DNA of 64,000 nucleotides, taken from the NCBI RefSeq assembly GCF_021730395.1, contig NC_069372.1, positions 64,284,221 through 64,348,220 of the forward strand. Reading direction: 5' to 3'. Of the stretch, positions 4,991-64,000 are shown in pieces (the stretch's first letter is position 1; every line of letters begins with the position of its first letter). The stretch comes from Mercenaria mercenaria (Eukaryota). Made by a program: the position numbers and the translations under genes. The notes beneath the pieces are model-generated. The model was not told the DNA's origin and did not search any database. It saw only the letters and a list, made by a program, of their open reading frames with translations.

Positions 4991-7900
4991 ATATCATAAT
5001 TTCGTCTTCTGGTAAGACTTGCGCAAACGCTTGCAAGACATTTCGAGACCGTAAATTCGACTCCGATACATTTCAACCCCAACTTACGATGTTCCTTGGA
5101 CATTTCAACCCCTCCTTGGACATTTCAACCCAAATCTATGATAAGCATAGCAGGGTAAAAGATGTCATTTTTTTAAAGCGGTGTACATATTTATCCCTTT
5201 TTCGACACGCACGGAGGTTAAAATTTGTAGCAGTGTAGTTATTAATCCATTTTAGAGTTAATTGATAAAGATAATACGTATAACATGTAATTCCCCACAC
5301 TCCCATCCTCACAATAATCTCTATCAAGTTACTAAGTAACATGTGTTACTTAGTACATTAGATAATTGTCCACATATTCCTCAGTTGCTTTACGTTGAAA
5401 GAATATGATGTGGTCTCTGGACAGTCGACTGTGGTGGATGCCACTGGATCCGCGCATGCTAATTTAAACATAGGGTTTATTTGACAGAAATGATTTATTA
5501 TGTAAATGTATGTATTTACAGTCTTGTGTCATTTTCTGGGGACAAAACATGGTCGTGCTGCAAAACAAACATGGCAATTTCACTTTTTGTATTATTTTTT
5601 CTCAGCAATTATTGTTTTGTGTCTGTTTCTTGTCGCAAAAGTTGCGTTAGATTCTGCTTTATGCAACTTATTTAGTAGGAATTGGACTTGTACGAACAGA
5701 GTGGAATACACATTATATAAGGAGGCAGACACGAGAAGGAACACCTTGTGGAAAGCCAGACATTTTATATTTGTATCCAGAATTATATGGTAAAGGAATT
5801 TCAATTATGGTCTTGCCACAATAAACATTGTTTTTTACATTCAATTCCTTGTGATTCATGAAATATAAAGTATTGACTTCCATGTTCTTAGTTTTTTTTT
5901 TTCTTTTCTTTTTTTTTATATACGACAGTTGACGTGTTTTCTCGAAGAGAAGATCTTAAGATATTTTGCTTAACGGTTTTTATCATGTGTAAAAACGTTA
6001 AATGGTGAAGAATTTGAAACATTTAAAACAGTAGTAGCTCTACGTATATATGCATATGTCATTAAAACACTGACACACATGTATGAAGAGCAATGATTAA
6101 TTTTAATTAGGAAATTTCATTTCATCTCATCTGCAACCGGATCCTGTTTGTCTTCTGTCTAGTAATATCACCTGATTAAGGTCAAACATTAAATATTCTT
6201 CTGTATTTGACTGAACATAATTCCAGGATATGTGATCATGTGATTAAAATGCACAGATACAGATACCGAAAATACAAAGACAAAAGTCATATTTGTGTTG
6301 CTTGCCGTTTTCTTTATATTTTTTCAGATATGTCTCAGTCTTCAGTTATTTTTATATTGTTTCTGACTATACTGTATATCTCTTTTGGGTACTTCGTTCA
6401 AACACTTGAAACAGCATAATAAGCTTAAAAGACTTCGGTTTATCTGACAGAACAAACTACAAACAGTAAATAAACAAGAGGATCGGCCAACTGGTCCTGC
6501 GCTCACCTGAGTAAATGCAGCTTACTGCATTTAAATAGTAAGAAGACAAGTTTTTGTAATATATAAAAGCCTATGTAGCACTATATGACTCCTGGGATGG
6601 GGCAAATTTGACGCTGAGAATGATTTGAATATCATTCGAAATTGTCTAGTAGACAATGATGCACGCACTTTCTGACCTAAAAAAAACGTGCTTTTCGCTT
6701 ATTGTATTTCAAACAATAAAATATCTACTTGCAGTTCAGAAAAGGAGTGGATATAACTACTCTCTATTTTAAACATATTTTCTGATATATTTTTTCCATT
6801 AAAGCTAGAATGAACGCATTGAAGTAAGAAACTATATTTATTCATTAATGTTAGAGTAAAAATACGTATGGTTAAGATCTTGTCCGCATTTGACCGTATT
6901 CATATCTAACACTCAGATAAAACTTCCACCATTTTTACAAATATTTGTTTTTTGCTTTTTTTTTCAAATTTGAATAACGTGATTATTATAGCTGGATGTT
7001 AACTTTCATCTTCTCAAAATGAACATTTTAGAATAATTCTCGATTTGAAAACTTCATATACAACTGACCCTTAGAAAAAAGTTTCTTGTCTAATTCATCC
7101 ATCAGAAATAACCAACATCCTTCATGTCGCACCGAAGGACACAATGGTTGGACCGTTCGCCCGTCAACCGAACGTTTTAGGTTTGGTGTCCGGGTACAGT
7201 CACTTTATCCGTGACTAATATTTTTAAATGAGACAGTGAATTATTGTGGGAAAAGAGTTTATGCCGTAAAAGAATAAAATGTTGACGAAAACTGGCGTAC
7301 AACCCAAACACAATTTTAAGTTAACCAAAGTATGCACAGTCAGACGACAATGAAGTTAACGTCATACATTAAAAGTGTATATACATGGAATAAATAAGTT
7401 ATTGCACTTATGCGTTTATAACCATTAATTGTGTTACGCCGTGTCTCAACAACCTCAATTATGTCACGTCGGTCGCTTAATCAGCCTTTCTTTATAGTTC
7501 TAACCATTAGCACTCTCTGTAAAAAAATTGACATCTTTCCCACTTCATGGAACGCTGTAGCTAGTCTGGCTCGAAGTAACATCTCCGGATCGGGGGGAAA
7601 TTGTATTCTGCTATTTATGAAACAGTTGAAACGGATGAAGCCAATAAATAATGCAACAAACCGTTCAATAAAGGCTGCAAATAAATACTACAAACATAAT
7701 GTGAACTTGGTTGAAAAACTCGGGAAAAAAGACGTAGCGTTTTATCTGTGCTTAAACTTTCCAATTTTCATAGCATCGTAGCTTGAAAATGAATTCGTTA
7801 GTGAAAGAGTTTTATAATCTTATTTAATTCATAAAACATTTCAGGAACATTTTCAGAAATTAACAAAGATTCTATGGAGGGGAAAACGAGCAATAAAATG

Positions 7901-8363: not shown

Positions 8364-8985
8364 AACAAGGAGCTGCGTTCAATAAACGCTTGATGCCCCC
8401 GGTGGCATCCTTGTCGATAAAAATGAGGTCAAGGTCAAACTGAGGTCAGGTGATGTTTGACGATGAGGAATGGTCACAGGTTACATCTGTATTAGTATCA
8501 ATTCATTCTTGTAAGCAGTATTGATGCTAAACGAAACAGTCCCATTTGGTTAACCAAGAGATGGCCCATATAAAGCAACCTAAGTCCAAAATGAGGTCAA
8601 GGTCAAGGTCAAACTGAGGTCAGGTCATGTTTGACGATGAGGAATGGTCACAGGTTACATCTGTATTAGTATCAATTCATTCTTGTAAGCGGTATCGATG
8701 CTAGACGAAACGGTCCCATTTGGTTAACCAAGAGATGGCCCATATAAAGCAACTTAAGTCCAAAATGAGGTCAAGGTCAAGGTCAAACAGAGGTCAGGTG
8801 ATGTCTGAAGATTAGAAATGGTCACAGGTTACATCTGCATTAGTTTCAAGTCATTCTAGTTAGGGATATTGATGCTAGACGAAACGGTCCCATTTGGTTA
8901 ACCTCGTACGGACGGACGAACGAACGGACGGACGGACAGGACGATCACTATATGCCTTCCGCATCAGTAGATGCCGAGGGCATAA
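8364..8985 (+). mobile_element. Helitron/Helentron-like non-autonomous element carrying about 3 copies of a roughly 190-bp tandem unit, a (GGAC/GAAC)n microsatellite and a 3' GC hairpin (GATGCCGAGGGCAT) followed by AA
   Basis: The 5' region is aacaaggagctgcgttcaataaacgcttGATGCCcccggtGGCATC. Tandem units each start ..aaatgaggtcaaggtcaaggtcaaactgaggtcagg... ggacggacgaacgaacggacggacggac at 8910-8940. Terminal palindrome at 8969-8983. Confidence 0.5.
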
Positions 8986-17190: not shown

Positions 17191-18959
17191 AAGTAATATA
17201 CAGTTTTACATGCTGTTCAAATTTTCAGTACAAACAACTCTTTCTTTCTAGATTGGTGTTGTTTGATTTTTTGTTCTCAAGGGCTCCATCGAAACCTTAA
17301 ACTAAAAATATACACAGATCTAAATCAGAAATATCTTCCAGTTTTTGTTGGTACCAGTCAATAACGCGGGCTCTGAAAAAAAGTTATAGTGTGGTTCCTC
17401 CTTAAGGTTTTTGTCTGTTTATATTATTCAAACGCAGTTACCGAGATTTCTTTTCTCATTTTGTTTTACAAACGCAATGACACTGCAATTTATTTTCATT
17501 TACCAAGTAATGAGATCCAAGCAACTAAACAGGCAAAAAGACTTACCTTGCGGTATTCATTTCGCTATTTACATTTAAAAGTAGTTTCATCGGACCATTT
17601 TTTTTTTACAAAAGTATTGTAGAGATACTGTTTTGCATTTAATAGTGCAAATGTATTTGATAACATAATATTGTCATTTTGATAAAGGAAACATTTTTTG
17701 ATTGTTACTTGATTCAGTATTATATCCGAGAACTCTTTTGAAGATTACTAAAATTTCTTTGCTAACGTGTCTGAATCATGAAAGGCTATCAAATTATGTT
17801 AACATCATCCACTTTTTGTTATGGCAAAACTTTTGTTGATAAAAACAAGTATGGTATCATCTACATTTGAGCACGGTGAATAGAAGTGCGCGTCTACTAT
17901 ATAAATTATTATTTTAATGACAATTGTGAAATATTTACTAAGCTGTAGTGTAGGACGAGGAGAACCAAAATCTGCATTAAGCAAACTTAAAATCTATATT
18001 CAAGTACATTTATTTCGACCGTATCCCAGAGTTACAGATACGCATATGCAACAGAAATGTTTACCAATCACTGATCTAGCTAATGAATTACATTTAAAAG
18101 TGGAGCATCTTAATTAAACGACTGAAACGTCGAGATGATATTTCTTCAAACATGTCCTCGTAAGTAGGTGTCCGAAATAGATGCACTCTAAATAATTTAC
18201 GCAACGATTTGTAACAGTTTTTATTGAGGGTAGGTGGGGGTATGTCGTGTTGAAAGTAAAAAAAAAATAATAGCCTATAGCTACGGTCCTGTATTTTCTT
18301 AGGAAATTTACAAACCTACAAGAATACAGTTTACTAATATAGGCGCAAACATTGGCACTAGCCTCATAACATCACCTGATCTGTTTCATTGCTTCTTTAG
18401 ACAAGATATACAAACCACTGTTGGTGTCATCTACCTACCTACCTGTATATCTACTTAGGTGTAATAATGTAATAGTGTAATGTCATGTTCCGTTTTTTTC
18501 CTGATTTAGAAGATTCGGAATGAACACAAATTAAAGCTATTGCTATTTGTACTCTAAATGTTACATAGATTCGGAATGAACACAAATTAAAGCTATTGCT
18601 ATTTGTACTCTAAATGTTACATAGACCTTGGACCAGATAGCTTAGTCGAAAAGACGATATGGAGCAGACGTGATGTCAAGACCTTTGACTTCAAGTTTGA
18701 CCTTGACCTTGGACCTAGTGATACAGTTTGTGAACTTTGCATATCATCTTCAGGAGTGAAATAATTTATGCTTTTCATGAAAGCCTTCCCAGTGGTTTAG
18801 AAGATATGAAATAAACACAAATTTGTGAACTGCAAGAGTGCGACAGTGACTGGACCTAGTGGCTGTGTTGTGTTCTCTGCACATCCTCTTAGTGAGGTTT
18901 TCAACTGATGCTAGTTGTAGGAAATTCTTCCAAGCAATTTAGATAACAAGTTAACTTTG

Positions 18960-20839
18960 CAGGGCGTCAAGTGCTTTTGGGAGTCAAAAATATAGGTAGG
19001 ATCCTGAAATATAGGTATTTGGGGGCCAGAAATATAGGATTATATAGGTTGCTTATAATGAAGAAAACAAGTCAGACAAGTGTTTTATCCTCCTCCACCA
19101 CCTACCAGCACTCTCTTGTATTAAACATAAAATCTACTTTTATGATTTTAAACAAATAACATTTTAACATATATCTTACTTTCATAATAAACTATTAATT
19201 CACCAACAGACAAAACTTTACCAATACTGGTACTCAAATCAGTTTAACAGGGAATTAGGCAAACCAAGCCATATTGCTAACAACATATATCAGTACATTG
19301 TTAATACAAGTATAAAATATTGTGTTGGGCCTGCATTTGTACATGAATGAAAAAGAAAACAATTATAATCAAACCATCCTCAGAACAAAATTACAACAGT
19401 TTCATACTTATGAATACCATGATCTCTGTAAACATGATAACACATGGAGTCCCTTGACCCAGGGTCCTATAATATTGTTACATTAGACCTTCTTGGATTT
19501 CTTGGCATCTGTTTCTTTATCTTCATTCTTTCTCTTGGATGAATGCTTTTCTGATGAAGGACTTGACTTGGAAGAAGAGGCAGCTTGCTTGTCTGGTTCA
19601 GATTTTGAAGTTCTTGTTGAAGCAGTGGCAGAGCTTTTGGAACTTGATATGGCTGATTCTTGTTTCTTTCCTTTGCTTGATGATTTAGAACTGCACTTAT
19701 CTAGTCTGTTAACCAGTAACTGTCTCTTTTGCTGCTCAACTTCCCTTTGGTTTTCATGTACCCTGTCCATTTCCTTTCATATACCCTCTATCTTTGATGT
19801 GGCTGTTGCTATCATCATTTGTGCTACAGAAGCACCTTTCATGTCACTACTTTCAACAGCTTTAGAAAACGTTTTGTTCCCATCTTTTAACAGTTCCTCT
19901 GCTACAGTCAACCTTGTCTGAATCTCCATTTCTTTTTTAAGCAGTGCTTTTTCTTTTTCAAGCATGGAGGAGGTCTTATTCTTCTCTTCTGTTGCAAGTT
20001 CTTCCAGTCTTTTCTTTTTAAGCCTTTCTTTCTCTCTCTCCTGTTTCTTTTTCTCTCTTTCTTCTTTTTCTGTCTCAATCCTCTGTTTATACTTGTTATG
20101 GGCCATTTTTGCTGCCAAAAGTATTTCACTGTTTAATGGTAATTTGTGAGGTTGCTCATCTATAGGATCACTGAACTTAACTATGTCCTTCACAGTTCTG
20201 ATGGCAGTAACAGTTTTCTCACCCAAGGCAACTCTGTCCTTAGTCACTACACTAGTGTTCACTGACAAACTTCTCTCAACCTCTGAATTTCCATGTGGTA
20301 ATACCAGAGCTTTCTTGACAAGTTGACGTAAAAATCTGTACTTGAGCTGCCCACTATCAAGCTTCTTCACAAACACTTGTCTCCAATAACGGTCAATTCT
20401 ATCTTCTTCTTTCAAATCATCTTCTGTTTGATATACCTTCCATTCATCCACAATATTAACAGTCATATTTTCATCAAAATGCATTTCCTATTCACATTTT
20501 CATACATGAAAGCTTTAAGAAATGGAAAATATTCCAACTGAAAAAAGAACTTCCATTACTTAAAGCTTTCCTAAAGCTGGGCTCGGCAGGGTCGCTACAC
20601 CTGAAAGGAATACAAATTTCAATGCCTAAAAGGTAAAAGCATATTTATAAACTCAATTATCATAGAATTACTTCTTTTTTAATGGTTTGAATGACCTTTG
20701 TATTCCTTGCTTACCACAAAATTTCCAGATTATAGGTATTTATAGGTATTTTGGCAAAATATAGGATTTTATAGGTTATTATAGGTAGAGGGCTAAAATA
20801 TAGGAAAATATAGGTAAATATAGGTAACTTGACGCCCTG
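18960..20839 (-). mobile_element. hAT-like DNA transposon (about 1.9 kb): 13-bp TIR CAGGGCGTCAAGT / ACTTGACGCCCTG, subterminal TATAGG(T) repeat clusters, flanked by direct repeat ACTTTG
   Basis: The TIRs were read directly at 18960-18972 and 20827-20839. ACTTTG sits immediately outside both termini (18954-18959 and 20840-20845). An Ac-type CAGGG terminus is typical of hAT elements. The internal ORF carries a hAT C-terminal dimerisation-like domain. Confidence 0.6.
19483..20484 (-). pseudogene. Transposase-derived ORF with a hAT C-terminal dimerisation-like region (..IDRYWRQVF..LVLPHGNSEVERSLSVNTSVVTKDRVALGEKTVTAIRTVKDIV..), K/E-rich coiled-coil tail and S/K-rich tail; interrupted by one in-frame TGA at 19777-19779
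   Basis: ORFs 19777-20484 and 19483-19770 are in the same frame, separated only by TGA plus two codons. The pattern resembles Pfam Dimer_Tnp_hAT (ER.FS....T..R..L). The N-terminal catalytic part is absent. Confidence 0.5.
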
Positions 20840-22429
20840 ACTTTGACCTCCAGAGTAACATTTACCTTGGACTTAGTAACCTGGGTTGTTTGCTCTACAC
20901 GTCATCATGATGTGGTTTATAACAGCTAATGCTAGTTTTATGAACTTTAAAAGATATGGAGCAGACACAATGGACAGAAGAACATGTCCAACTCCAATAT
21001 TCACCCACATGCCCTTTGTACCTGTGGTATATAAATAAGAAACCTACAATCATGTACACTCTTAATACTCAACATTACAGGACAAACCAGTGTTGATTTT
21101 TGACCTGCACTGGTAACTTCGAAAAAGTATTCTGAACAGATCTACTTTTAAGAATCCATAATGATTATCAAAAGTATCTTCATATAATTTTTAGTTACAT
21201 TCCATAAAATAAGTACATGTAAAAGTTTGTTATTTCAAGATGGCTATATATTTCTCATCCTATTCCAGTTCTAAATATTATACAGACAACCTTTTAGCAT
21301 CTTGAAAATATCTTATTTTAGTCAAAATTGCAATTTCTCCAATATGGCGATCCACCACAACCTCTTTACTTTTGATGATTAACTAAGCTTAAATAAAAAA
21401 ATAAAACAGCTACACGACGACAACAAAACAACATTATTTGGCAGATATTTATTTATAAATATTTATAACAATAGATGAAAGGAAAAACAAACAAGAAAAG
21501 TATGTTTCAAATAGTGATTACTTATCACAGTGTATATAAATTGTTTTAGAAAATAAGTGAAGAAAAAATATTAGCACAAATTATTCACCATACTGCATCT
21601 AGAGTATAGCAATAGAAAAGAAAAAAGAACAAAGCATAAACAGTAAGGTAGCAACTACTGCAAACCATAAACCAGGAGGGAGAACAGTGTCTTCAACCAC
21701 CTTTCTCCTAAACACACAGAAAAATGTAACAATGTCAACTGTGCACACAAAGTATGGTGTAAGATAACAAAAACAGCTAGTCATTTCTAAACTTTCAGGC
21801 AAAGTTTATCACACGACTCACTATTAAAAAAAAATAAACCAATGCAATGTAAGCATCCTTATGGTAAACTTTTCCATCACATTGACAATTATATATCTGT
21901 TCGTTAACACAAGTTTATAAAAATAATTACTTTATGCAACATGTTTGCAATTATCATGATTTTAATGAAAGTTATAATTAAGCTGAAGAAAGTGTATAAA
22001 CAATAAATGGACACATTTTTCATCAGCAGTTGATTGGGCATTTCAATTTATTACTATTATAAACATACATGTATTAAGGAAAATAAAAATCTTTTCCATA
22101 TCTAATAATGAAAATATAAAGAAAAAAGTGGTCAGGAATGCTACTTTGTACATTTTTATGAAAATGAAAATCTCTTGCTAAAAACTTATAAAACAATGCC
22201 AAAGAACAAAATATATATATAAAACTTGTGTACTTCTATCACAGAAAAGTTTCAAAGATTAAATGTAAATGTGTTGCAACCACATTATGTCATACAGCAA
22301 GGTACAACATCAAAGTCGAAATACAACATACATACGTTTTGATATGAAACAATGAGGTACATGTTTACATTTCAAAATACTAGTTAAGGCTGGATAAATT
22401 TACATCCATTAACAAATAGTGTACACCTG

Positions 22430-23989: not shown

Positions 23990-25213
23990 CAGGGTGTGCC
24001 CCCCCCCCCCCACTGGTACATTTGTCACAAATAAGGGGCAATAATTCAAATGTTTGCAGTCTCAGTTTGAGGGTATAGCCTCAACAAACACTTTATGAAA
24101 AGGAGAAAAGGATTCATTATTCTAGGCCATATACTTTTTGAGCTATGAGCAAAACAAACAAAAAATCCACTATTTTGGCTATTTCAAGGGCCATAACTCT
24201 GTAATAAAAGCTAAGATTCTCAAGAAGAATGGTAAGTGTGCAAAGTCACATCACGATAAAGACTCCAGCAAGGTTTCCTGAATTTACATCTAATACTTTT
24301 TGAGCTAGGCAAATAATTAGGTAAAAAAGTGCATAATTAGGTGAAAATGTGCATTTTTTTGCTATTTCAGGGGCGATAACTTTAAAAATAGGGGGTGGAG
24401 CCAGCCAAAAAATTAGAGGAGTGCAAGTTTATATCATGATTAAGATTTATGCAAGTTTTCAACTATTTATACTAAATACTTTTTGAGCTAGGTGCGTCAC
24501 AAGGTGAAAATGTACATTTTTGACTATTTCAGGGGCCATAACTCTAAAAATAGGGGGTGGACCCAAATGAAAAATAGGAGGTGTGCAAGTTCATATCATG
24601 ATTAAGACTAATGCAAGGTTTCATGAATTTATATCAAATACTTTATGAGCTAGGCATATCACAAGGTGAAAATGTGCATTTTTGACTATTTCAGGGGCAA
24701 TAACTCTGAAAATAGGGGGCGGAGTCAGATGAAAAATAGAAGGTGCGCACGTTCATATCATGATTAAGACTCTTGCAAGGTTTCATGAATCTATATCAAA
24801 TACTTCTTGAGCTAGGCGTGTCACAAGGTAAAAATGTGCATTTTTGACTATTTCAGGGGCCATAACTCTGAAAATAGGGGGCAGAGCCAGATGAAAACTA
24901 GGAGGTGCGCAAGTTCACATCATGATTAAGATTCATGCAGGTTTCATGAATCTATATCAAATACTTTTTGAGCTAGTGTGTCACAAGGTAAAAATGTCAT
25001 TTTTGACTATTTCAGGGTCATAACTCTGAAAATAGGGGCGGAGCCAGACGAAAAATAGAGGTGCGCAAGTTCATATCATGATAAAGACTCATGCAAGGTT
25101 TCATCAATTTATATCAAATATTTTTCGAGCTAGGCGCGTCACGAACTTCGGACGGACGCACAGACAAGACCAAATCTATATGCCCCCACCACTCATGGGG
25201 GGGGGGGCACAAA
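23990..25213 (+). mobile_element. Helentron-like element with about 6 copies of a roughly 160-bp tandem unit, bounded by poly-C (24001-24012) and poly-G (25196-25206) runs; (GGAC)-type tract and TATGCCCCC..GGGGGGCAC hairpin at the 3' end
   Basis: Tandem units are recognisable by ..tttttgagctagg..gtgaaaatgtgcatttttgactatttcaggggccataactct.. at about 24300, 24478, 24636, 24797, 24962 and 25120. Lies in the MVP intron between exons 11 and 12. Confidence 0.5.
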
Positions 25214-26584: not shown

Positions 26585-27215
26585 ACAGGAGCACCGCCTA
26601 TGGGTGCCATCGCTCGTCTGCAACTGCTGGACAATATGTAAGAAAAGAGTTATAGCTCAGATTTTCTAAGTACAAAAAGGGCCATAATTCTGACAAAATG
26701 CAGGTTAGAGTTATGGTTCTTGACCTACATTGTCCCCCTAATGATGATAAACAAGTGTGCAAAGTTTCAAAGCTGTAGCTCTTATAGTTTTTGAGAAACG
26801 GTGACATAAACAAAAAATTTAACTAATAAACTCAAATTTTCTAAGTACAAAAAGGGCCATAATTCTGACAAAATGCATATCAGAATTATGGGTCTTGGCC
26901 TACATAGTCCCCTAACAATGATAAACAAGTGTGCAAAGTTTCAAAGCTGTAGCTCTTACAGTTTTTGAGAAAAGGTGGACCTAAACAAAAATTTCCACCA
27001 AGAATCTCAAATTTTCTAAGTACAAAAAGAGCCATAATTCTGACAAAATGCATATCAGAGTTATGGTTCTTGGCCTAATGATGGTAAACAAGTGAGCAAA
27101 GTTTCAAAGCTGTAGCTCTTACAGTGTTTGAGAAAAGGTTGACCTAAACAAAAATTCTAACCAACGCCGCCGCCGATCAAGTGACGACAATACCTCGTAG
27201 ATTGTTTTCAAAAAT
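26585..27215. repeat. Tandem array, about 3 units of roughly 190 bp (..ttttctaagtacaaaaagggccataattctgacaaaatgca..), with GCACCgcctatGGGTGC hairpin at the left edge and a (GCC)3 tract at the right edge
   Basis: Direct repetition read at about 26640, 26830 and 27015. Lies in the MVP intron between exons 10' and 11. Confidence 0.5.
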
Positions 27216-29218: not shown

Positions 29219-29689
29219 CTGAAATTGAATTGGTTAATTGTTTAAAACAACATGCTCTGATTTACATTATTTCAATTTCCTAGGGCTAACGAAGTCCCTT
29301 TCTTAAAGGTAATCAGCCAAGTACAGTATTTTACTTTCATCCAATTCACTTTTAATAACAAGAGGGTCATGATGACCCAGAATCGCTCACATGAGTAATA
29401 TGAGCCACATATTTAAAATTGCAAACTGATGCTAAAATATTAGAAAGTAGGTCAGTAGGTCACATTCATGGTCACTGAGAGTCAGTTTTAAGACTGGTGT
29501 GAAAAACTGTACATGTCATCCAAAATTCAAGGCTGTATCTTAAAAAAACAAGAAAGTAGGTCAGTAGGTCAAGGTCACAGTCAAGTGACCCCTAATCACT
29601 TCCAGTCATCAGTTAATTATGATTAAGCACTCTAGGAAATATGATTTGATAATTTTTGAAGTATTTATTCCTATATAACTCATATAACA

Positions 29690-30560
29690 AGTGACCCCCA
29701 GGGCGGGGCCTCTTTTCACCCCAGGGGCATAATCTGAACAATCTTGTATGAGATCCACTAGGCAATGCTACATACCCAATATCAAAGGCCTAGGCTATGA
29801 ACTTTCAGACAAGAAGATTTTTTCCCCTATAGATATGTCTATGTTAAATTTGGGAACCCTAGGGCATGGCCTCTTTTCACCCCAGGGGCATAATTTGAAC
29901 ACTTTTGGTAGAGGAACACCAGGCAATGCAACATACCAAATATCAAAAGCCTATGCCATGCAGTTTCAGGCAAGAAGATTTTTAAAGTTTTTTCCTATAT
30001 AAGTCTATGTAAAACTTGAGACCCCCGGGGCAGGGCCTCTTTTCACCCCAGCGTTATAATTTGAACAATTTTGGTAGAGGACCATAAGGCAATGCTACAC
30101 ACCAAATATCAAAGGCCTAGGTCTTGTGGTTTTAGACAAGAAGATTTTTAAAGTTTTTTCCTATATAAGTCTATGTAAAACTTGTGACCCCCGGGGCAGG
30201 GCCTCTTTACACCCCAGGGGCACAATTTGAACAATCTTACTAGAGGACCATTAGATGATGTTACATGCCAAATATCAAGGCTCTACGCCTTGCGGTTTTG
30301 GACAAGAAGATTTTTAAAGTTTTTCCTTTCGGTTGCCATGGCAACCAGAGTTCTGCATGGAATTCAATTCTTTGAAAAATTTTGAAAGGGGGCAACCAAG
30401 GATCATTTCTGTGAAGTTTGGTTTAATTCTGCCCAGTGGTTTTCAAGAAGAAGATTTTTTTAGAAAATGTTGACGGACGGACGGACGACGCACGACGGAC
30501 ATTGAGCGGTCATAAAAACTCACTATGAGCCTTTGGCTCAGGTGAGCTAATAAACTGACT
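29690..30560 (+). mobile_element. Helentron-like element with about 4.5 copies of a roughly 160-bp unit (..ggggcctcttttcaccccaggggcataat..), (GACG/GGAC)n tract and terminal GAGCCtttGGCTC hairpin + aggtgagctaataaa
   Basis: Units at about 29700, 29865, 30025 and 30185. gacggacggacggacgacgcacgacggac at 30471-30500. Lies in the MVP intron between exons 8 and 9. The same terminal motif (gctcacc..ggtgagctaataaa) is seen at 1985-2030. Confidence 0.45.
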
Positions 30561-33699: not shown

Positions 33700-34395
33700 A
33701 GTCTAACCATCGTCAATAAGATTGCAATAGTTGTGAAACTAGAAAAGTGTCCATAGGACACAGATTTTTCCTAGGTCAGGGGCCATAACTCCTACAATAC
33801 TGAATGAATCCGGACGCGAAACCCCAGGTGCACAACTGCACATGCTGACCAACATTCCTGTAAACTTTGGTGACTCTAGGTCAAATACTTTTGGAGGTAC
33901 GCGCGACACAACATTACAATGACCAATTTTTAACTAAGTCAGGGGCCATAACTCCTACACGACTGAATGAATCCGGACGCAAAACCCCAGGTGCACAACT
34001 GCACATGCTGACCAACATTCCTGTAAACTTTGGTGACTCTAGGTCAAATACTTTTGGAGCTATGCGCGACACAACATTAAAATGACCAATTTTTTACTAA
34101 GTCTGGGGCCATAACTCCTACACGACTGAATGAATCCGGACGCAAGACCCCAGGTGCACAACTACACATGCTGACAAACATTCCTGTAAAGTTTTGTGAC
34201 TCTACATCAAATACTTTTGGAGCTAGGCGCGACACAACACTAAAATGACCAATTTTTACAAAGTCCCAGGTGCACAACTACACATGCTGACCAACATTCC
34301 TGTAAAGTTTTGTGACTCTACCTCAAATACTTTTGGAGCTAGGCGCGACACATCTTTATGCCCCCCCCCCCCCCAAAGTGGGGGCATAAAAATCA
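33700..34395 (+). mobile_element. Helentron-like element with about 3.5 copies of a roughly 163-bp unit and a 3' hairpin TATGCCCCC(C)n..GGGGGCATA followed by AAAA
   Basis: Units begin ggggccataactcctaca at 33781, 33943 and 34107. ctttatgccccccccccccccaaagtgggggcataaaaatc at 34354-34393. Lies in the MVP intron between exons 4 and 5. Confidence 0.5.
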
Positions 34396-34919
34396 GCAAA
34401 AGCCTGGCCATATAGCACAGCACAAATAACACTGTGGTAGGAAAACAATGTCTCAGCAATTTAACCCTGGCAAATAGTTTCTCAAAAACAAAATTTAAAC
34501 AAAGTAACGTATTTTCTCGAGAAAAACAAAATCTAAACTGAATGAACTTTATCATTGTATAATTGCTCACGGTGACCGGTAAATCATTTTTAATTCATGA
34601 CACAACTAATTTCTTTACTCTTTCATGTTTTACAAATACATATATAGTATAGGTATAAATATGATGGGTGTGGTAGCCATGATTTGAAGTTTAGTAGGGC
34701 ATGATTTTGTTTTGGACCGATCGAGTTTTCAAAATTTCTGAAGCCCTGACAATTAATATACTGAAATATATGACTAGCAATGTGTATAACTGCTTATAGC
34801 TTTTTATGTCATTACAAATGCATTCTCATAATGAATACAGTACGAACATTGTAATTCTGATCTACATAACATTCCTTATTAAAACATGATTTAATGTAAA
34901 CACATATGTATTAACTGAC

Positions 34920-35272
34920 CTCTTCATAGACATTTGGGATATGTGTTTCCGTCATATCCATGGTAATAAGCCACTCTTCACCATTTTTACGTGTTATTCC
35001 GAAATCGTCCTTGAAGGTTCTCAGTGACCTCATGTGCAATGCCTTCTTCTCTGTGAGAACGTAGGCATTTACAATGTCAACAACTTCTTCGTAAGCTCCT
35101 GGTAAATAGGCTCCAGTCTTCTTTACTTCCCATTCTTCACCAGTCACACGTGCATTACCCTCCCTGTCAATACATTCTTTACGTGCACGTAATCTGATAG
35201 CCTGGTTGGGTTTGATGATGGTGGCCCGCACCGTCTCTTCAACCACAACCTCTTTCCTTGGAATATAGGTAC
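34920..35272 (-). CDS. MVP: MVP exon 4 ([47 protein letters not shown]...THIPNVYEE)
   Basis: Six-frame ORF 34911-35399 (minus). Acceptor ctag at 35274-35273, donor GTCAGT at 34919. Matches the human MVP repeat-domain region [47 protein letters not shown]. Confidence 0.85.
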
Positions 35273-35329
35273 CTAGCAGAAAGACAATTTTGCTCATGTT
35301 ATTCATTACTATACAACTGAGAAAACTGG

Positions 35330-36590
35330 AGCTATCACTAAAGGTGATGAATGCACCCCCCGCATGCACTGACACAGTACACTGCAATTTGACGCACACA
35401 AGATTGCATAATTATGTGGACTGTATGAATATAGACTGTATGTATACTGTATATGCAGACTGTATGTACATAGTATGTTAACAAGAAACAAAGTCCCATA
35501 ACTCTGCAATTTTTTTTGTTGAAAGAACCTAACATGCCCTATGCATAACTACTGTTGTTACTGATCACTTGTGTGAAGTTTCATTCAGTTGTGTCAAGGG
35601 GATGAGGAGAGATGGTGCGCACAAGATTGTGTCTATGTATATAGTAAAGTAACAAAAAACAAAGTCCCGTAACTCTGCAATTTTTTTCTGAAAGAACCTA
35701 ACATACCCCATGCACAACTACTATTGTTACTGATCACTTGTGTGAAGTTTCATTAAATTGTGTCAAGGGGATGAGGAGAGATGGTGAGCACAAGATTGTG
35801 TCTATGTATATAGTAAAGTAACAAAAAACAAAGTCCCGTAACTCTGCAAATTTTTTTTCTGAAAGAATCTAACATGCCCCATGCACAACTACTGTTGTTA
35901 CTGATCATTTGTGTGAAGTTTCATTAAATTGTGTCAAGGGATGAGGAGAGATGGTGCGCACAAGATTGTGTCTATGTATATAGTATAGTAACAAAAAACA
36001 AAGTCCCGTAACTCTGCAATTTTTTTCTGAAAGAACCTAACATACCCCATGCACAACTACTGTTGTTACTGATCACTTGTGTGAAGTTTCATTAAATTGT
36101 GTCAAGGGGATGAGGAGAGATGGTGAGCACAAGATTGTGTCTATGTATATAGTAAAGTAACAAAAAACAAAGTCCCGTAACTCTGCAAATTTTTTTTCTG
36201 AAAGAACATAACATGCCCCATGCACAACTACTGTTGTTACTGATAACTTGTGTGAAGTTTCATTAAATTGTGTCAAGGGGATGGGGAGAGATGGTGCGCA
36301 CAAGATTGTGTCTATGTATATAGTATAGTAACAAAAAACAAAGTCCCGTAACTCCGCAATTTTTTTCTCTGAAAGAACCTAACATGCCCCATGCATAACT
36401 ACTGTTGTTACTGATCACTTGTGTGAAGTTTCATTAAATTGTGTGAAGGGGATGAGGAGAGATGGTGCGCACAAGATTGTGTCTACGGACAGACAGACAG
36501 ACAGACAGACGGACAGACAGACAGACAACCTGAAACCAGTATACCCCACCTTACAACTTTGTTGTCGGGGGGTACAAATATATCAACCTT
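35330..36590 (+). mobile_element. Helentron-like element with about 5 copies of a roughly 180-bp unit, a (GACA)n microsatellite (36487-36530) and a 3' hairpin GTACCCC..GGGGGGTAC
   Basis: Units share ..aacaaagtcccgtaactctgcaattttttt..ctgatcacttgtgtgaagtttcatt..gatgaggagagatggtg.. The 5' region (cacagtacactgcaatt..gcacacaagattgcataa) has a paralogue at 9040-9100. Lies in the MVP intron between exons 3 and 4. Confidence 0.5.
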
Positions 36591-46658: not shown

Positions 46659-48177
46659 CCATATTTGTATAGCACTCTTTTCATACAAAAGAATATACGT
46701 TCAAAAATGCTTAACAATAGAATGAACATACATGCACAATAGATAATTACAAAAATAAAACAATGATACGGATAAGATACGTGTTTAAAACATTAAATAA
46801 TAGTTAAAATTATTAAATGCTAAACACAGTTTACTACATGAAAGTCAAAACAATATCACACTTGCAATATATCTATGCATATGACTACGAATAACACAGT
46901 TTGTCTGGTTAAACACAAATTACATCTAAAACAGTTTACGCAGAAAACAACATTGAAGTGTTTAAAATACGATTCATAACGAGATTAAGAAAAGAATTTA
47001 GATTGATAAGCTGACAAATTCACAGTCGGACTATCACATGCATGTGCATGGTCACTGTCCATAGTATTTTACAAATAAATGTGTTTTTAACGATTTTTTG
47101 AATGATAAGAGTGTTCCATTGTTTCTTATGTCATTAGGTAGAGCATTCCACAGTCTTGGTGCAGCATGTCAGAAACTTCTGTCACCGTATTTTACAGTAC
47201 GTGATTTTTGCACAACAAGTAAATTTGAATTTTGTGATCTTAAATTTCTTGAAGGTCTGTATATATCAAGCATGTCCTTGATGTATTTAGGGGCATGATC
47301 TTGAAGAGCTTTATAGGTGTGGGTCAGGATCTTAAACTCCACCCTGTATGGTACAGGAATCCAGTGTAGTTCTTTAAGCACAGGTGTTATGTGCTCGTTA
47401 CGGCGTGTTCTCGTTATTATACGTGCAGCTGCATTTTGAACGTTCTGAAGTTTGTTTAAACAAGACCTCGGAATGCCATACAAAAAACCATTACAGTAAT
47501 CGAGACGTGAGGTAACCAGGGAGTTTACTAGCGACTTTGTGGCATTGGAGGTAATGTAGTCCCTTATATGTTGTATCTGACGCAACTGTATATAACAAGA
47601 TCGACATACGGCATTTATATGTTTTTCCATGTCCATTTTCGAATCAAGGATTGCGCCTAGATTTCTTACGCTGGATGACGGTGTTATGGTAGACTCGCCA
47701 ACTTTTACTGTAATGTTATCAGTGAGTTTTTCATTTTGTTTTGATGTGAAGACAATGACTTCGGTTTTTTCAGCATTCAGTTTCAGCATGTTTTTATTCA
47801 TCCAGGTGATTATTTCATTGAGACAATGTTCTACTCGTTGTAGGGATTCAATTCTAGTAACAGTCTCTGTTGGCTTAAATGACAGATATAATTGTCCATC
47901 ATCAGCATAGAAATGATAATTGAGCCCATGATTCTCACAAATTGCACCAACAGGTTTTGAGTACATGGTAAAGAACTTAGGTCCAAGGACTGAGCCCTGT
48001 GGCACACTATATTTCATCAAAACAGGGTTTGACACCTCTCCATCAATACAGACAGTTTGGTAGCGCTCGTCTAAATAAGACTTCACCCACTCAAGTGGTT
48101 TGCCTGCAATATCAAAATGATGTTCAAGGCTGTGCAACAGAGTCCCGTGATCAATGGTATCAAAGGCTGCTTTATGA
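46620..48177 (-). mobile_element. 5'-truncated non-LTR retrotransposon (LINE) fragment: C-terminal reverse-transcriptase region (YADDGQLY motif) plus a 3' (AAT)n tail, inserted into the long-TIR element
   Basis: ORF 47169-48137 (minus), 322 aa, with the RT palm motif FYADDGQL and downstream thumb-like sequence. (att)12 at 46621-46657 lies at the element's 3' end. The host element's sequence resumes at 48178. Confidence 0.65.
46621..46657. repeat. (ATT)12 microsatellite (the 3' tail of the minus-strand LINE fragment)
   Basis: Direct reading. Confidence 0.8.
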
Positions 48178-59597: not shown

Positions 59598-60640
59598 TTA
59601 GCTCATCTGATTTTTTGAAAAAAAATGATGAGTTATTGTCATCACTTGATCGGCGTCGGCATCGGCGTTGCCTGGTTAAGTTTTATGTTTAGGTCAGCTT
59701 TTCTCCTAAACTATCAAAGTTATTGCTTTGAAACTTGGAACACTTGTTCACCATCATAAGCTGACCCTGTACAGCAAGAAACATAACTCTATCCTGCTTT
59801 TTGCAAGATTTATGGCCCCTTTTGTACTTAGAAAATATCAGATTTCTTGGTTAAGTTTTATGTTTAGGTCAACTTTTCTCCTAAACTATCAAAGCTATTG
59901 CTTTGAAACTTGCAACACTTGTTCACCATCATAAGCTAACACTGTACATCAAGAAACATAACTCCATCCTGCTTTTTGCAAGAATTATTGCCCCTTTTGG
60001 ACTTAGAAAATCAGTTTTCTTGGTTGAGTATTATGTTTAAGTCAGCTTTTCTCATAAACTATCAAAGCTATTGCTTTAAAACTTGCAACAGTTTTTCACC
60101 ATCATAAGCGGATGCTGTACATCACTTGTTCACCATCATAAGCTGACCCTGTACAGCAAGAAACATAACTCCATCCTGCTTTTTGCAAGATTTATGGCCC
60201 CTTTTGTACTTAGAAAATATCAGATTTCTTGGTTAAGTTTTATGTTTAGGTCAACTTTTCTCCTAAACTATCAAAGCTATTGCTTTGAAACTTGCAACAC
60301 TTTTTCACCATCATAAGCTAACACTGTACATCAAGAAACATAACTCCATCCTGCTTTTTGCAAGAATTATGGCCCCTTTTGGACTTAGAAAATCAGTTTT
60401 CTTGGTTGAGTATTATGTTTAAGTCAGCTTTTCTCATAAACTATCAAAGCTATTGCTTTGAAACTTGCAGCTGTTGTTCATCATCATAAGTTGACTCTGC
60501 ACATCAAGAAACATAACTCCATCCTGCTTTTTGCAAGAATTATGGCCCTTTTTGGACTTAAAAAATCATAGGTAGGACAACTTTTCTATTATACAAAAAA
60601 ATCAGATGAGCGTCAGCACCCGCAAGGCGATGCTCTTGTT
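59598..60640. mobile_element. TIR-bounded non-autonomous element (TIR GCTCATCTGATTTTTT / AAAAAATCAGATGAGC) carrying about 5 copies of a roughly 175-bp tandem unit
   Basis: Left end tttagctcatctgatttttt at 59598-59620 and right end aaaaaatcagatgagcgtc at 60598-60618. Units repeat ..cttggttaagttttatgtttaggtca..ctatcaaagctattgctttgaaacttgcaac... Confidence 0.45.
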
Positions 60641-62164: not shown

Positions 62165-64000
62165 AGATAATTATGTCTCCCCCAGGAGACATATTGTTTT
62201 TGCCCTGTCCGTCCGTCCGTCTGTCCGTCCGTCCTTCCGTCCGTCCGTACGTCACACTTCATTTCCGAGCAATAACTGGAGAACCATTTGTCCTAGAACC
62301 TTCAAACTTTATAGGGTTGTAGGGCTGCTGGAGTAGACGACCCCTATTATTTTTGGGGTCACTCTGTCAAAGGTCAAGGTCACAGGGGCCTGAACATTGA
62401 AAACCATTTCCGGTCAATAACTAGAGAACCACTTGACCCAGAATGTTTAAACTTCATAGGATGATTGGTCATGAAGCGTAGATGACCCCTATTGATTTTG
62501 GGGTCACTCCGTCAAAGGTCAAGGTCACAGGGGCCTGAACATTGAAAACCATTTCCGATCAATAACTAGAGAACCACTTGACCCAGAATGTTGAAACTTC
62601 ATAGGATGATTGGTCATGAAGAGTAGATGACCCCTAATGATTTTGGGGTCACTCCGTCAAAGGTCAAGGTCACAGGGACCTGAACATTGAAAACCATTTC
62701 CGATCAATAACTGGAGAACCACTTGACCCAGAATATTGAAACTTCATAGGATGATTGGTCATGAAGAGGAGACATATTGTTTTTGCCCTGTCCGTCCGTC
62801 CGTCCTTCCGTCCGTCCGTCCATCCGTCCGTACGTACGTCACACTTCATTTCCGAGCAATAACTGGAGAACCATTTGACCTAGAACCTTCAAACTTTATA
62901 GGGTTGTAGGGCTGCTGGAGTAGACGACCCCCGTTTGTTTTTGGGGTCACTCCGTCAAAGGTCAAGGTCACAGGGGCCTGAACTTTGAAAACCATTTCCG
63001 ATCAATAACTGGAGAACCACTTGACCCAGAATGTTGAAACTTCATAGGAAGATTGATCATGAAGAGTAGATGACCCCTATTGATTTTGGGGTCACTCCGT
63101 CAAAGGTCAAGGTCACAGGGGCCTGAACATTGAAAACCATTTCCGATCAATAACTGGAGAACCACTTGACCCAGAATGTTGAAACTTCATAGGATGATTG
63201 ATCATGAAGAGTAGATGACCCCTATTGATTTTGGGGTCACTCCATCAAAGGTCAAGGTCACAGGGGCCTGAACATTGAAAACCATTTCTGATCAGTAACT
63301 TGAGAACCACTTGACCCAGAATGTTGAAACTTAATAGGATGATTAATCATGCAGAGTAGATGACCCCTAACGATTTTGGGGTCACTCCATCAAAGGTCAA
63401 GGCCACAGGGGCCTGAACATTGAAAACCATTTCTGGTCAGTAACTTGAGAACCACTTGACCCAGAATGATGAAACTTCATAGGATGATTGGTCATGCAGA
63501 GTAGATGACCCCTAACGATTTTGGGATCACTCTGTTAAAGGTCAAGGCCACAGGGGCCTGAACATGGAAAACCATTTCCAATCAATAACTTGAGAACCTC
63601 TCGACCCAGAATGTTGAAACTTCATAGGATGATTGTTCATACAGAGTAAATGACCCCTATTGTTTTTGGGGTCACTCCGTTAAAGGTCAAGGTCACAGGG
63701 GCCTGAACATTGATAACCAGTTCCGATCAATAACTTGAGAACCACTTGACCCAGAATGTTGAAACTTCATAGGATGATTGAACATGCAGAGTAGATGACC
63801 CCTATTGATTTTGGAGTCAGTCAATTAAAGGTCAAGGTCACAGTGGCCTGTTCATGTAAAATCATTTTTGGAAATAACTTGAGAACCACTTGACCTACAA
63901 TGTTGAAACTTAATAGGATGATTGGACATGCAGAGTAGATGACCCCTATTTATTTTGAGGTCACTTGATCAAAGGTCAAGGTCACAGGAGCCTGAACAGT
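62165..64000 (-). mobile_element. Minus-oriented Helentron-like element(s): hairpin ATGTCTCCcccagGGAGACAT, (GTCC)n tract, then at least 10 copies of a roughly 146-bp satellite monomer. A second, 5'-shortened start lies at about 62762. The array runs to the window end.
   Basis: Monomer period was measured between recurring gggtcactccgtcaaaggtcaaggtcacagg (for example 62501, 62646, 63088 and 63234, giving 145-146 bp). gtccgtccgtcc tracts at 62208-62250 and 62790-62830. Confidence 0.5.

Follow-up and report, generated by a model that had tools for sequence, protein, structure and literature searches.

A hAT6-type element in Mercenaria mercenaria with a truncated transposase frame is very probably a non-autonomous, internally deleted copy

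The 1,880-bp element described here lies within the window (the whole 64-kb stretch of Mercenaria mercenaria DNA that we analysed) and is very probably a non-autonomous, Ds-like derivative that arose by deletion from an autonomous hAT6-type transposon, that is, an ordinary broken copy, whose long open frame is most plausibly a remnant that has yet to decay rather than a gene. Both of its ends are intact, the interior carries a gap and the catalytic core is gone, as seen in alignment with a full-length relative (L008) and in tblastn comparison with a full-length protein (P0037). In window coordinates, the element and its flanks are made up of the following parts:

18954–18959, no strand: target-site duplication copy 1, ACTTTG, adjoining the terminus, with the same hexamer beyond the other end
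18960–18972, plus strand: terminal inverted repeat, CAGGGCGTCAAGT, 3′ end in gene sense, perfect complement of 20827–20839
18991–19048, plus strand: four subterminal TATAGG motifs from a motif scan, 3′ end in gene sense
19049–19482, minus strand: 3′ untranslated region, containing no ORF
19483–20484, minus strand: whole truncated transposase frame, 333 codons by translation, corresponding to about residues 552–822 of an 822-aa relative
19486–19692, minus strand: S/K-rich basic tail, residues ~265–333, by translation
19693–20106, minus strand: K/E-rich coiled coil, residues ~127–264, including the TGA, homologous to P0037 675–812
19777–19779, minus strand: nonsense codon TGA, copy-specific, ancestral CGA (Arg) by comparison with paralogues and L008
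20191–20373, minus strand: remnant of the hAT C-terminal (dimerisation) domain, residues 38–98, by PF05699 (E = 0.055) and Hermes alignment
20499–20509, minus strand: internal-deletion junction, the two parental sites sharing microhomology TCA(G)TGT, by alignment with L008
20510–20826, minus strand: retained 5′ leader, 73% identical to the leader of full-length L008
20731–20824, plus strand: eight subterminal TATAGG motifs in an array of 39-bp period, 5′ end in gene sense
20827–20839, minus strand: terminal inverted repeat, 5′ end in gene sense, perfect complement of 18960–18972
20840–20845, no strand: target-site duplication copy 2, ACTTTG, identical to copy 1

An earlier, sequence-only reading of this DNA had claimed Ac-like termini, subterminal TATAGG repeats and a directly abutting ACTTTG repeat of 6 bp rather than 8, and all three were found where it had placed them. 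The termini of hAT elements are inverted repeats of ~10–25 bp opening with a YARNG-type pentamer, and those of Ac open with CAGGG; the repeats found here show this hallmark, being 13 bp long, perfectly complementary and opening with CAGGG, a form kept in the relatives. The 13-mer CAGGGCGTCAAGT had no third match in the 64-kb window even at up to two mismatches. With CpG changed to TpG the same terminus also ends four other copies (L001, L002, L003 and L004), and five other loci share near-identical termini, rather than the differing termini among paralogues that would make the repeats a coincidence. The element holds 12 of the 39 TATAGG copies of the entire window, all 12 on the plus strand, so that the motif has the same orientation at both ends and is not inverted; read in gene sense as CCTATA, it is kept at both ends of L001, L002, L005 and L008. 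By analogy with the subterminal repeats of Ac and Hermes, we presume these motifs to be putative transposase-binding sites.

The reading frame is homologous to the C-terminus of ~800-aa proteins (BLASTP E = 9e-37 for P0037, 1.6e-38 for P0200) and represents the C-terminal ~40% of a transposase of that length. Among the larger relatives, L005 is 5,790 bp long with the terminus CAGGGTGTCAAGC and an 822-aa ORF, L007 is 3,608 bp with the duplication CAATGG and a 667-aa ORF, and L008 is 5,467 bp with a coding sequence colinear with residues 1–806; each of the three carries a CCTATA array at either end. L008, found in another sample, is the nearest full-length element, with 66–70% protein identity to the window copy, and its terminus departs from that of the window copy from position 8 onward (CAGGGCGCCCGGT); an autonomous element ending in exactly CAGGGCGTCAAGT was not among the copies seen in the M. 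mercenaria genome.

Assignment of the element to hAT is supported, and needs these relatives rather than the window ORF alone. A comparison of the 333-aa conceptual protein with Pfam matched nothing even at E = 10, and Dimer_Tnp_hAT (PF05699) scored 13.7 bits on the window ORF (E = 0.055), below the cut-off of 21.4; the same model was matched by eight of nine close homologues, no other family being found in more than a single homologue, and its cut-off was passed by P0200 (32.9 bits) and P0254 (32.5 bits); for the window ORF itself the proposed HMM check thus has indirect support from its homologues. A profile built from 24 full-length proteins and compared with PDB had Hermes of the housefly (PDB 2bw3, 4d1q, 6dww, 8edg) as its sole match (E = 1.2e-8), in three colinear stretches including SDGPNVNK/TDRGANVVK and RWLT/RWNS, and in the C-terminal hAT region the family profile aligns with Hermes at a domain E of 5.9e-7, the glutamate-carrying domain of Hermes there aligning with the window ORF. 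The AlphaFold model of P0037 (pLDDT 84.8) likewise retrieved Hermes chains alone in Foldseek (E = 2.4e-9 to 2.5e-6; TM 0.57–0.70, normalised to target), which makes Hermes the sole solved structure matched in both sequence and fold. Counterparts of the Hermes catalytic D, D and E and of its CxxH and RW motifs are invariant in the 24 full-length relatives (D186, D253, E620, C283/H286 and R345-W346, with R621 and S624 invariant alongside E620), so the relatives possess the hAT catalytic architecture, an RNase-H-like DDE core split by an all-helical insertion domain together with CxxH and RW, of which the window copy keeps the E alone. The relatives also conserve a C38-x2-C41 ... H58-x5-H64 arrangement, despite which Pfam zf-BED found no match in them. 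Identity to Hermes is only 12–14%, and the relatives are ~200 residues longer owing to a coiled-coil and tail extension; Hermes, moreover, makes 8-bp target duplications.

The 6-bp duplication and the sub-threshold Pfam scores of the window ORF could also point to another cut-and-paste superfamily with 6-bp duplications, for example IS3EU, the hAT likeness then being superficial. We regard this as highly improbable, as the full-length relatives match Hermes alone, by profile and by fold, over 540–650 aligned columns, and the termini of IS3EU are described as longer than 30 bp and ending in TAYGG (PMC12730594), whereas those of the clam element open with CAGGG and are 13 bp long.

Duplication lengths, which the sequence-only reading had proposed comparing across copies, were 6 bp in the window and at four other insertions, the five independent insertions carrying ACTTTG (window), TAATTG (L002), CAATGG (L007), CAACTG/CAACGG (L001) and CTTTCT (L005/L006). 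The canonical hAT duplication of 8 bp was present in none of the five, and comparison of the flanks does not lengthen ACTTTG to 8 bp; the 6-bp duplication is therefore the rule of the family and no anomaly of the window copy. It is compatible with hAT, since hAT subgroups whose duplications measure 5, 6 or 7 bp have been published (PMC12730594). One described group with 6-bp duplications, as relayed in that paper, is hAT6 (Kapitonov & Jurka 2007, Repbase Reports 7:1192, via PMC12730594), which falls within an animal hAT lineage including Blackjack (PMC12730594). The element is hAT6-type, matched to the group by this published 6-bp definition; hAT6 and the window family have in common a hAT-like transposase, 6-bp duplications (five of five insertions) and an animal host. 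Weak matches to DUF4371, which we take to be associated with the hAT lineage that includes Blackjack, were seen in some relatives and may fit a placement in the hAT6/Blackjack lineage.

Translation bore out the claimed minus-strand frame of ~333 codons broken only by the TGA (235 codons at 20484–19780, the stop at 19779–19777, then 97 codons at 19776–19486 and TAA), and the claimed order along it, from hAT C-terminal region through K/E-rich coiled coil to S/K-rich tail, is correct. A single internal stop stands in the frame, where 2,000 shuffles of the same bases gave ~25 (minimum 10). The earlier statement that no DDE part is left held for the two catalytic aspartates, both of which are missing, but not for the glutamate, as the helix that bears it is still there: E70 (20275–20277), in EVERSLS, aligns with SERTFS of Hermes and is the retained counterpart of the third catalytic residue. 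The coiled coil corresponds to a region of P0037 (675–812) modelled as two long helices (H675–758 and H762–812, pLDDT 80–87), and its LLKDG..KL..A motif is conserved in every full-length relative. The tail is identical in the M. mercenaria paralogues, and a comparable basic tail closes the full-length relatives. In the 3′ untranslated region only 45 bp could be aligned, to L008, whereas the coding part and the termini do align with relatives.

That the element is internally deleted, as had been proposed, is shown directly by its colinearity with full-length L008. Read in reverse complement, positions 1 to ~340 of the element align with positions 1 to ~350 of L008, and from 331 on it aligns with L008 from 2061; this gap is the sole break in an otherwise colinear alignment, the two sequences being 73% identical across the 5′ 285–340 bp, 75% across 826 coding bp and 76% across the 106 bp at the 3′ end. 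Relative to L008, ~1.7 kb is missing, comprising the start codon, the zinc-finger region, ~547 codons and both catalytic aspartates. The retained leader contains a candidate 114-nt intron at 20601–20714 (G/GTAAGC ... TTTCAG/G), which may be spliced; a 35-nt block around its acceptor-like site is perfectly conserved between the window leader and L008, and GGTAAGCAAG comes after the repeats in the window, L001–L004 and L008. We had also considered 20485–20720 as decayed coding sequence, from a likeness (FY..V.KY) to L001, and rejected this because the segment aligns with the non-coding leader of L008.

In tblastn, the retained part began at P0037 residue ~552 in the window copy, 498 in L001, 619 in L002, 391 in L003 and 466 in L004. 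Because breakpoints differ among copies, the short copies are independent Ds-like deletions, not a single conserved short gene. The like sizes of the window copy, L001 and L004 had first suggested one old short-form lineage of ~1.9 kb under selection, an idea that also leaned on the closest full-length proteins then known being only 34–39% identical; it was ruled out by the five different breakpoints and by L008, which is full-length and yet nearer to the window copy (66–70%) than the other short copies are.

On separate M. mercenaria scaffolds there are at least four more copies, 95–96% identical in protein-level comparison; no second copy was found in the 64-kb window. Four M. mercenaria paralogues are annotated by NCBI as protein-coding, one with an intact 327-aa ORF, under the RefSeq names ‘titin homolog’, ‘luc7-like protein 3’ and ‘DNA ligase 1-like’. 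Host genes derived from hAT transposases are common, and the existence of these gene models could suggest that the locus is such a domesticated gene rather than a mobile element, which we consider most unlikely: the inverted termini of the locus are intact, its subterminal arrays and a target duplication are in place, several ~95% identical copies lie across different scaffolds, the window copy carries a nonsense mutation, and the RefSeq names stem only from the low-complexity K/E/S-rich tail. As to the nonsense codon itself, whether it is copy-specific had been set as a check, and all four M. mercenaria RefSeq paralogues have Arg at the aligned position; the codon there is CGA in L008 and AGA in L001 and L002. 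The TGA is thus private to the window copy and, since the paralogues carry Arg and L008 carries CGA, arose by a C-to-T transition at CpG.

The intactness of the frame, strikingly high against the shuffles, raises the alternative that the truncated ORF is expressed from the retained leader as a dominant-negative, KP-like product that disables the multimers formed by the autonomous transposase, the window copy then being a recently killed regulator allele. Three things would agree with this: a leader is still there, with a putative promoter and a conserved pair of sites resembling donor and acceptor; paralogues are annotated as protein-coding; and what remains of the full-length protein is precisely its self-association modules. 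So would a between-lineage dN/dS of ~0.2, although with dS saturated this value is equally expected from a full-length transposase past (L008 being full-length) and does not tell whether selection acted on the fragment or on a full-length ancestor. Against it, paralogues in another genome have a dN/dS of 0.51 with stops and frameshifts, and the varying breakpoints mean that no particular truncated protein is conserved. The Met codons are non-ancestral (where the window frame has its ATG, at 20484, L008 has Leu, and P0271, a RefSeq paralogue reaching 62 residues further upstream than the window frame, has Lys), and short ORFs with their own AUGs lie upstream and come first. The starts of the RefSeq paralogue models fall at four different places, suggesting that each copy decayed individually. 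Nor does the intact frame need selection, because at ~5% divergence between copies we estimate only one or two stops neutrally. We therefore hold a functional truncated product to be unlikely. The related idea that the deleted family persists since a product made of oligomerisation domain, coiled-coil hairpin and NLS-like basic tail, translated from the retained leader, limits autonomous transposition is, if anything, a shade more doubtful; if true, a hAT lineage would have a KP-like self-regulator consisting of the C-terminal part only and acting via dead hetero-oligomers. The likeness to KP and type II repressors of the Drosophila P element, which are internally deleted and encode truncated transposase, is a functional analogy only: KP belongs to another superfamily and retains the N-terminal DNA-binding part, whereas the clam copy retains the C-terminal part only.

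We return to the preferred reading, a deletion derivative of an autonomous hAT6-type transposon. Judged from the relatives, the parent element would have been 3.6–5.8 kb long, with short inverted termini beginning CAGGG, CCTATA arrays inside both ends, a 5′ leader and a single ~800-aa ORF, the latter encoding an N-terminal finger (CxxC...H...H), an RNase-H-like DDE core that holds an insertion domain, the hAT C-terminal domain and, at its end, a coiled-coil hairpin of ~135 residues followed by a basic tail. An internal deletion of ~1.7 kb would have fused the leader to codon ~548 with loss of the start codon, the finger and both aspartates, and the microhomology at the junction would be as expected from interrupted gap repair or slippage. 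The window copy cannot cut DNA itself, but retains in its termini and subterminal motifs all the cis sequences that movement by a full-length partner requires; we infer that the deleted form was mobilised in trans by a full-length element, because it seems to be present at several genomic places, and the longer upstream reach of P0271 is a slight hint of an autonomous partner in the same genome. The window copy inserted into ACTTTG, the CGA-to-TGA change in the coiled-coil region coming later, and the insertion is young, since its termini and duplication are perfect. The Ds derivatives of maize Ac likewise keep their termini and subterminal arrays but lack an internal stretch of the transposase gene, have breakpoints that vary by copy, and depend on a full-length partner for movement (presumably so for the clam element). 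Compared with Ac/Ds, the clam element has a 6-bp and not an 8-bp duplication, a TATAGG and not an AAACGG motif, and belongs to a separate animal lineage.

Internally deleted copies are an expected by-product of hAT activity, and in bivalves hAT elements rank with the most common DNA transposons (PMC10294476); the biological importance of this copy is small and its chief value lies in annotation. At least four RefSeq models, carrying the names given above, are mislabelled transposon remnants, and the Pfam hAT model is blind to most of this family. The lineage is widespread in animals, occurring in clam-like genomes, spiders, a rotifer, a sea anemone and a hagfish, and is marked by its 6-bp duplications and by an unusual long coiled-coil C-terminal extension that is possibly worth structural study. 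The insertion point of the window copy lies ~1.8 kb downstream of the major vault protein (MVP) gene.

The element at 18960-20839 of the window (1880 bp) belongs to a hAT6-type transposon family; it is internally deleted and non-autonomous, and carries a private nonsense mutation. The inverted termini, subterminal TATAGG motifs and flanking ACTTTG that a sequence-only reading had described are all present, and they lie, together with the coding features, as follows.

18960-18972 and 20827-20839: terminal inverted repeat CAGGGCGTCAAGT, perfect complement, 13 bp
18954-18959 and 20840-20845: direct repeat ACTTTG, abutting both element ends
18991-19048 and 20731-20824, + strand: subterminal TATAGG arrays (4 and 8 motifs)
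20484 to TAA at 19483-19485, minus strand: ORF, 235 codons, TGA (19777-19779), 97 codons
20601-20714, minus strand: candidate leader intron, predicted splicing (L008 element 124-255)
19693-20106: C-terminal extension (P0037 residues 675-812; L005 3498-3911)

With two mismatches allowed, the terminal 13-mer matches only twice in the 64 kb, and the identity of the ACTTTG flanks cannot be extended to 8 bp. These perfect termini and the perfect duplication indicate a fairly recent insertion, into flanking DNA that is unique inside the window. The element holds 12 of the 39 TATAGG copies of the whole window, four inside its low-coordinate end and eight inside its high-coordinate end, all 12 on the + strand. 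In each element examined (window, L001, L002, L005 and L008) this hexamer (CCTATA in gene sense) points the same way at the two ends, which are therefore not mirror images past their 13-bp termini. CpG is strongly depleted in the element (observed/expected 0.12 vs 0.69 for the whole window); CpGs survive in both its termini, and the terminal CpG is TpG in other genomes.

The minus-strand frame is interrupted by its single TGA exactly as first described, whilst shuffles of its bases contain ~25 stops each (minimum 10). A Pfam search with the 333-aa conceptual protein gave no match, Dimer_Tnp_hAT scored 13.7 bits on residues 1-135 (below the cut-off of 21.4), and the sole PDB match was the Hermes transposase C-terminal domain (E = 0.5 as a single sequence, 0.012 as a small profile). 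An exhaustive HMMER search returned 1660 homologues, amongst them proteins of ~800 aa that match at residues ~500-690 and continue with the same K/E-rich stretch and basic tail; the ORF is 36% identical to residues 552-804 of the 822-aa transposase P0037 (E = 9e-37). Searched against the PDB, a profile of 24 full-length relatives matched Hermes alone (E = 1.2e-8); the match is split into three colinear segments, which take in the second catalytic-aspartate motif, the RW motif and the C-terminal domain. The AlphaFold model of P0037 (mean pLDDT 84.8) retrieved Hermes chains only (top eleven E = 2.4e-9 to 2.5e-6, 540-650 aligned columns, target-normalised TM at most 0.70), the next match having E > 0.05, and two relatives, P0200 and P0254, pass the Pfam cut-off for PF05699. 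The counterparts of the hAT catalytic triad (D, D, E), of the CxxH motif and of the RW motif are invariant across all 24 proteins, the triad residues being equivalent to Hermes D180/D248/E572. Because these full-length homologues match Hermes by both profile and fold, the ORF is taken to be the last ~40% of a hAT transposase, which upholds the proposed hAT affiliation through the homologues. The accompanying claim that no DDE is present holds for both aspartates but not for the glutamate, whose helix is kept (E70 in EVERSLS).

Related elements were found on contigs encoding homologues. Three are full-length or nearly so, all with CCTATA arrays (gene sense) inside both ends; four short copies (L001, L002, L003 and L004), from two other samples, end in CAGGGTGTCAAGT.

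L005: 5790 bp, terminus CAGGGTGTCAAGC, one 822-aa ORF
L007: 3608 bp, terminus CAGGCTGTCAAGT, 667-aa ORF
L008: 5467 bp, terminus CAGGGCGCCCGGT, four frame-shifted coding pieces, together colinear with residues 1-806
L001: 1891 bp, short copy
L002: 1725 bp, short copy

The proposed internal deletion is supported by alignment with L008, the nearest full-length relative, in three blocks (gene orientation): 1 to ~340 with L008 1 to ~350 (73% identity), 331-1182 with 2061-2910 (75%) and 1775-1880 with 5360-5467 (76%). The first two blocks join at window 20499-20509, where both parental sites carry TCA(G)TGT as microhomology. The deletion took out ~1.7 kb, and with it ~547 codons and the start codon, which lies at position 420 of the L008 element. 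Immediately ahead of the ORF's own ATG, a few codons are recognisably of coding origin but frame-shifted; that ATG stands where L008 has Leu and the paralogue P0271 has Lys. The first retained coding residue is ~391 in L003, 466 in L004, 498 in L001, 552 in the window and 619 in L002; since these starts differ, each short copy goes back to an internal deletion of its own, as Ds elements do with respect to Ac. Interrupted gap repair is an established source of such deletions in other elements and may have produced them here. A THAP zinc-finger match was obtained for an ORF (L003 1662-1919) that lies outside the L003 element, ~2.6 kb upstream of its terminus; this ORF probably belongs to some other, unrelated element or gene.

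Every readable insertion is flanked by a 6-bp target duplication.

ACTTTG: window element
TAATTG: L002
CAATGG: L007
CAACTG/CAACGG: L001
CTTTCT: L005 left flank and L006 right flank

The last was pieced together from two assemblies, as L006 is the L005 element in another assembly. The right flanks of this same 822-aa element disagree (AGATAG... and CTTTCT...), and the L005 left flank is matched by the right flank of L006 only, which suggests either a chimeric assembly joining copies of the repeat or two insertions. The sequence-only reading had remarked on a duplication of 6 bp rather than 8; the length stands, but it is no oddity of this copy. As the relatives share it and a hAT6 group of families with 6-bp duplications is described (Kapitonov & Jurka 2007, as cited in PMC12730594), it is a property of the lineage.

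Four M. mercenaria RefSeq models on different scaffolds are 94-96% identical to the ORF, so that the window very probably comes from this clam or a near relative. The models are remnants of the same transposon family, and their names appear to derive from the low-complexity K/E/S-rich tail.

XP_053405310.1 (P0265): 'titin homolog', 327 aa, intact frame
XP_045210587.2 (P0061): 'luc7-like protein 3'
XP_045198476.1 (P0270): 'DNA ligase 1-like'
XP_053388912.1 (P0271): 'DNA ligase 1-like'

All four have Arg at the site of the TGA and the aligned L008 codon is CGA; the stop is therefore private to the window copy and goes back to a C-to-T transition within a CpG.

The window frame is nearly intact, yet by our estimate ~5% divergence would bring in no more than one or two stops by chance, and we consider it very improbable that a window-type element yields a functional truncated protein. 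The parts kept are self-association modules, but the deletion breakpoints vary between copies; RefSeq models exist for the paralogues, but these begin at four different places. The 5' leader is also kept: its donor-like GGTAAGCAAG is conserved across the window, L001-L004 and L008, and a block of 35 nt spanning an acceptor-like TTTCAG/G is the same in L008 as in the window. Upstream AUGs, however, precede the start codons, which are not themselves ancestral. Paralogous copies in another genome carry stops and frameshifts (dN/dS 0.51), and the between-lineage dN/dS of ~0.2 (dS saturated) is what the lineages' evolution as full-length transposases would give in any case. The ends of the candidate leader intron are mutually complementary (AAGGAATACAAA ... 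TTTGTATTCCTT), a feature kept in L008, and the distant, full-length L005 has AAG/GTAAGT directly after its 5' repeats.

All 24 full-length transposases carry a ~135-residue extension after the hAT C-terminal domain, followed by the basic tail. The P0037 model renders it as a pair of very long helices (H675-758 and H762-812) bearing a conserved LL.EA..KL motif, and it could be an extra oligomerisation element. We know of no such extension in characterised hAT transposases.

The element shares its strand with a major vault protein (MVP) gene, whose stop codon it follows at a distance of ~1.8 kb.

38103-22651, minus: MVP gene (Pfam Vault, Vault_3, MVP_shoulder)
begins near 38103, minus: first coding exon
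34914-35411, minus: Vault-repeat exon (Pfam Vault, 3.4e-32)
near 29223-29020 and 25833-25573, minus: Vault_3 and MVP_shoulder exons
28354-28175 and 28162-28016, minus: adjacent, near-identical MVP exon-like pieces
23028-22651, minus: last coding exon
47172-48137, minus: 322-aa ORF with reverse-transcriptase domain (Pfam RVT_1, 5.8e-13)
8426-8903, 24339-25142, 26656-27164, 29652-30324, 33764-34265, 35463-36485, 59673-60568 and 62260-63998: tandem arrays

The paired exon-like pieces look like a tandem exon duplication and are candidates for mutually exclusive splicing, whilst the reverse-transcriptase ORF is probably a LINE fragment. The tandem arrays have units of 145-175 bp in 2.6-12 copies, and several lie within MVP introns.
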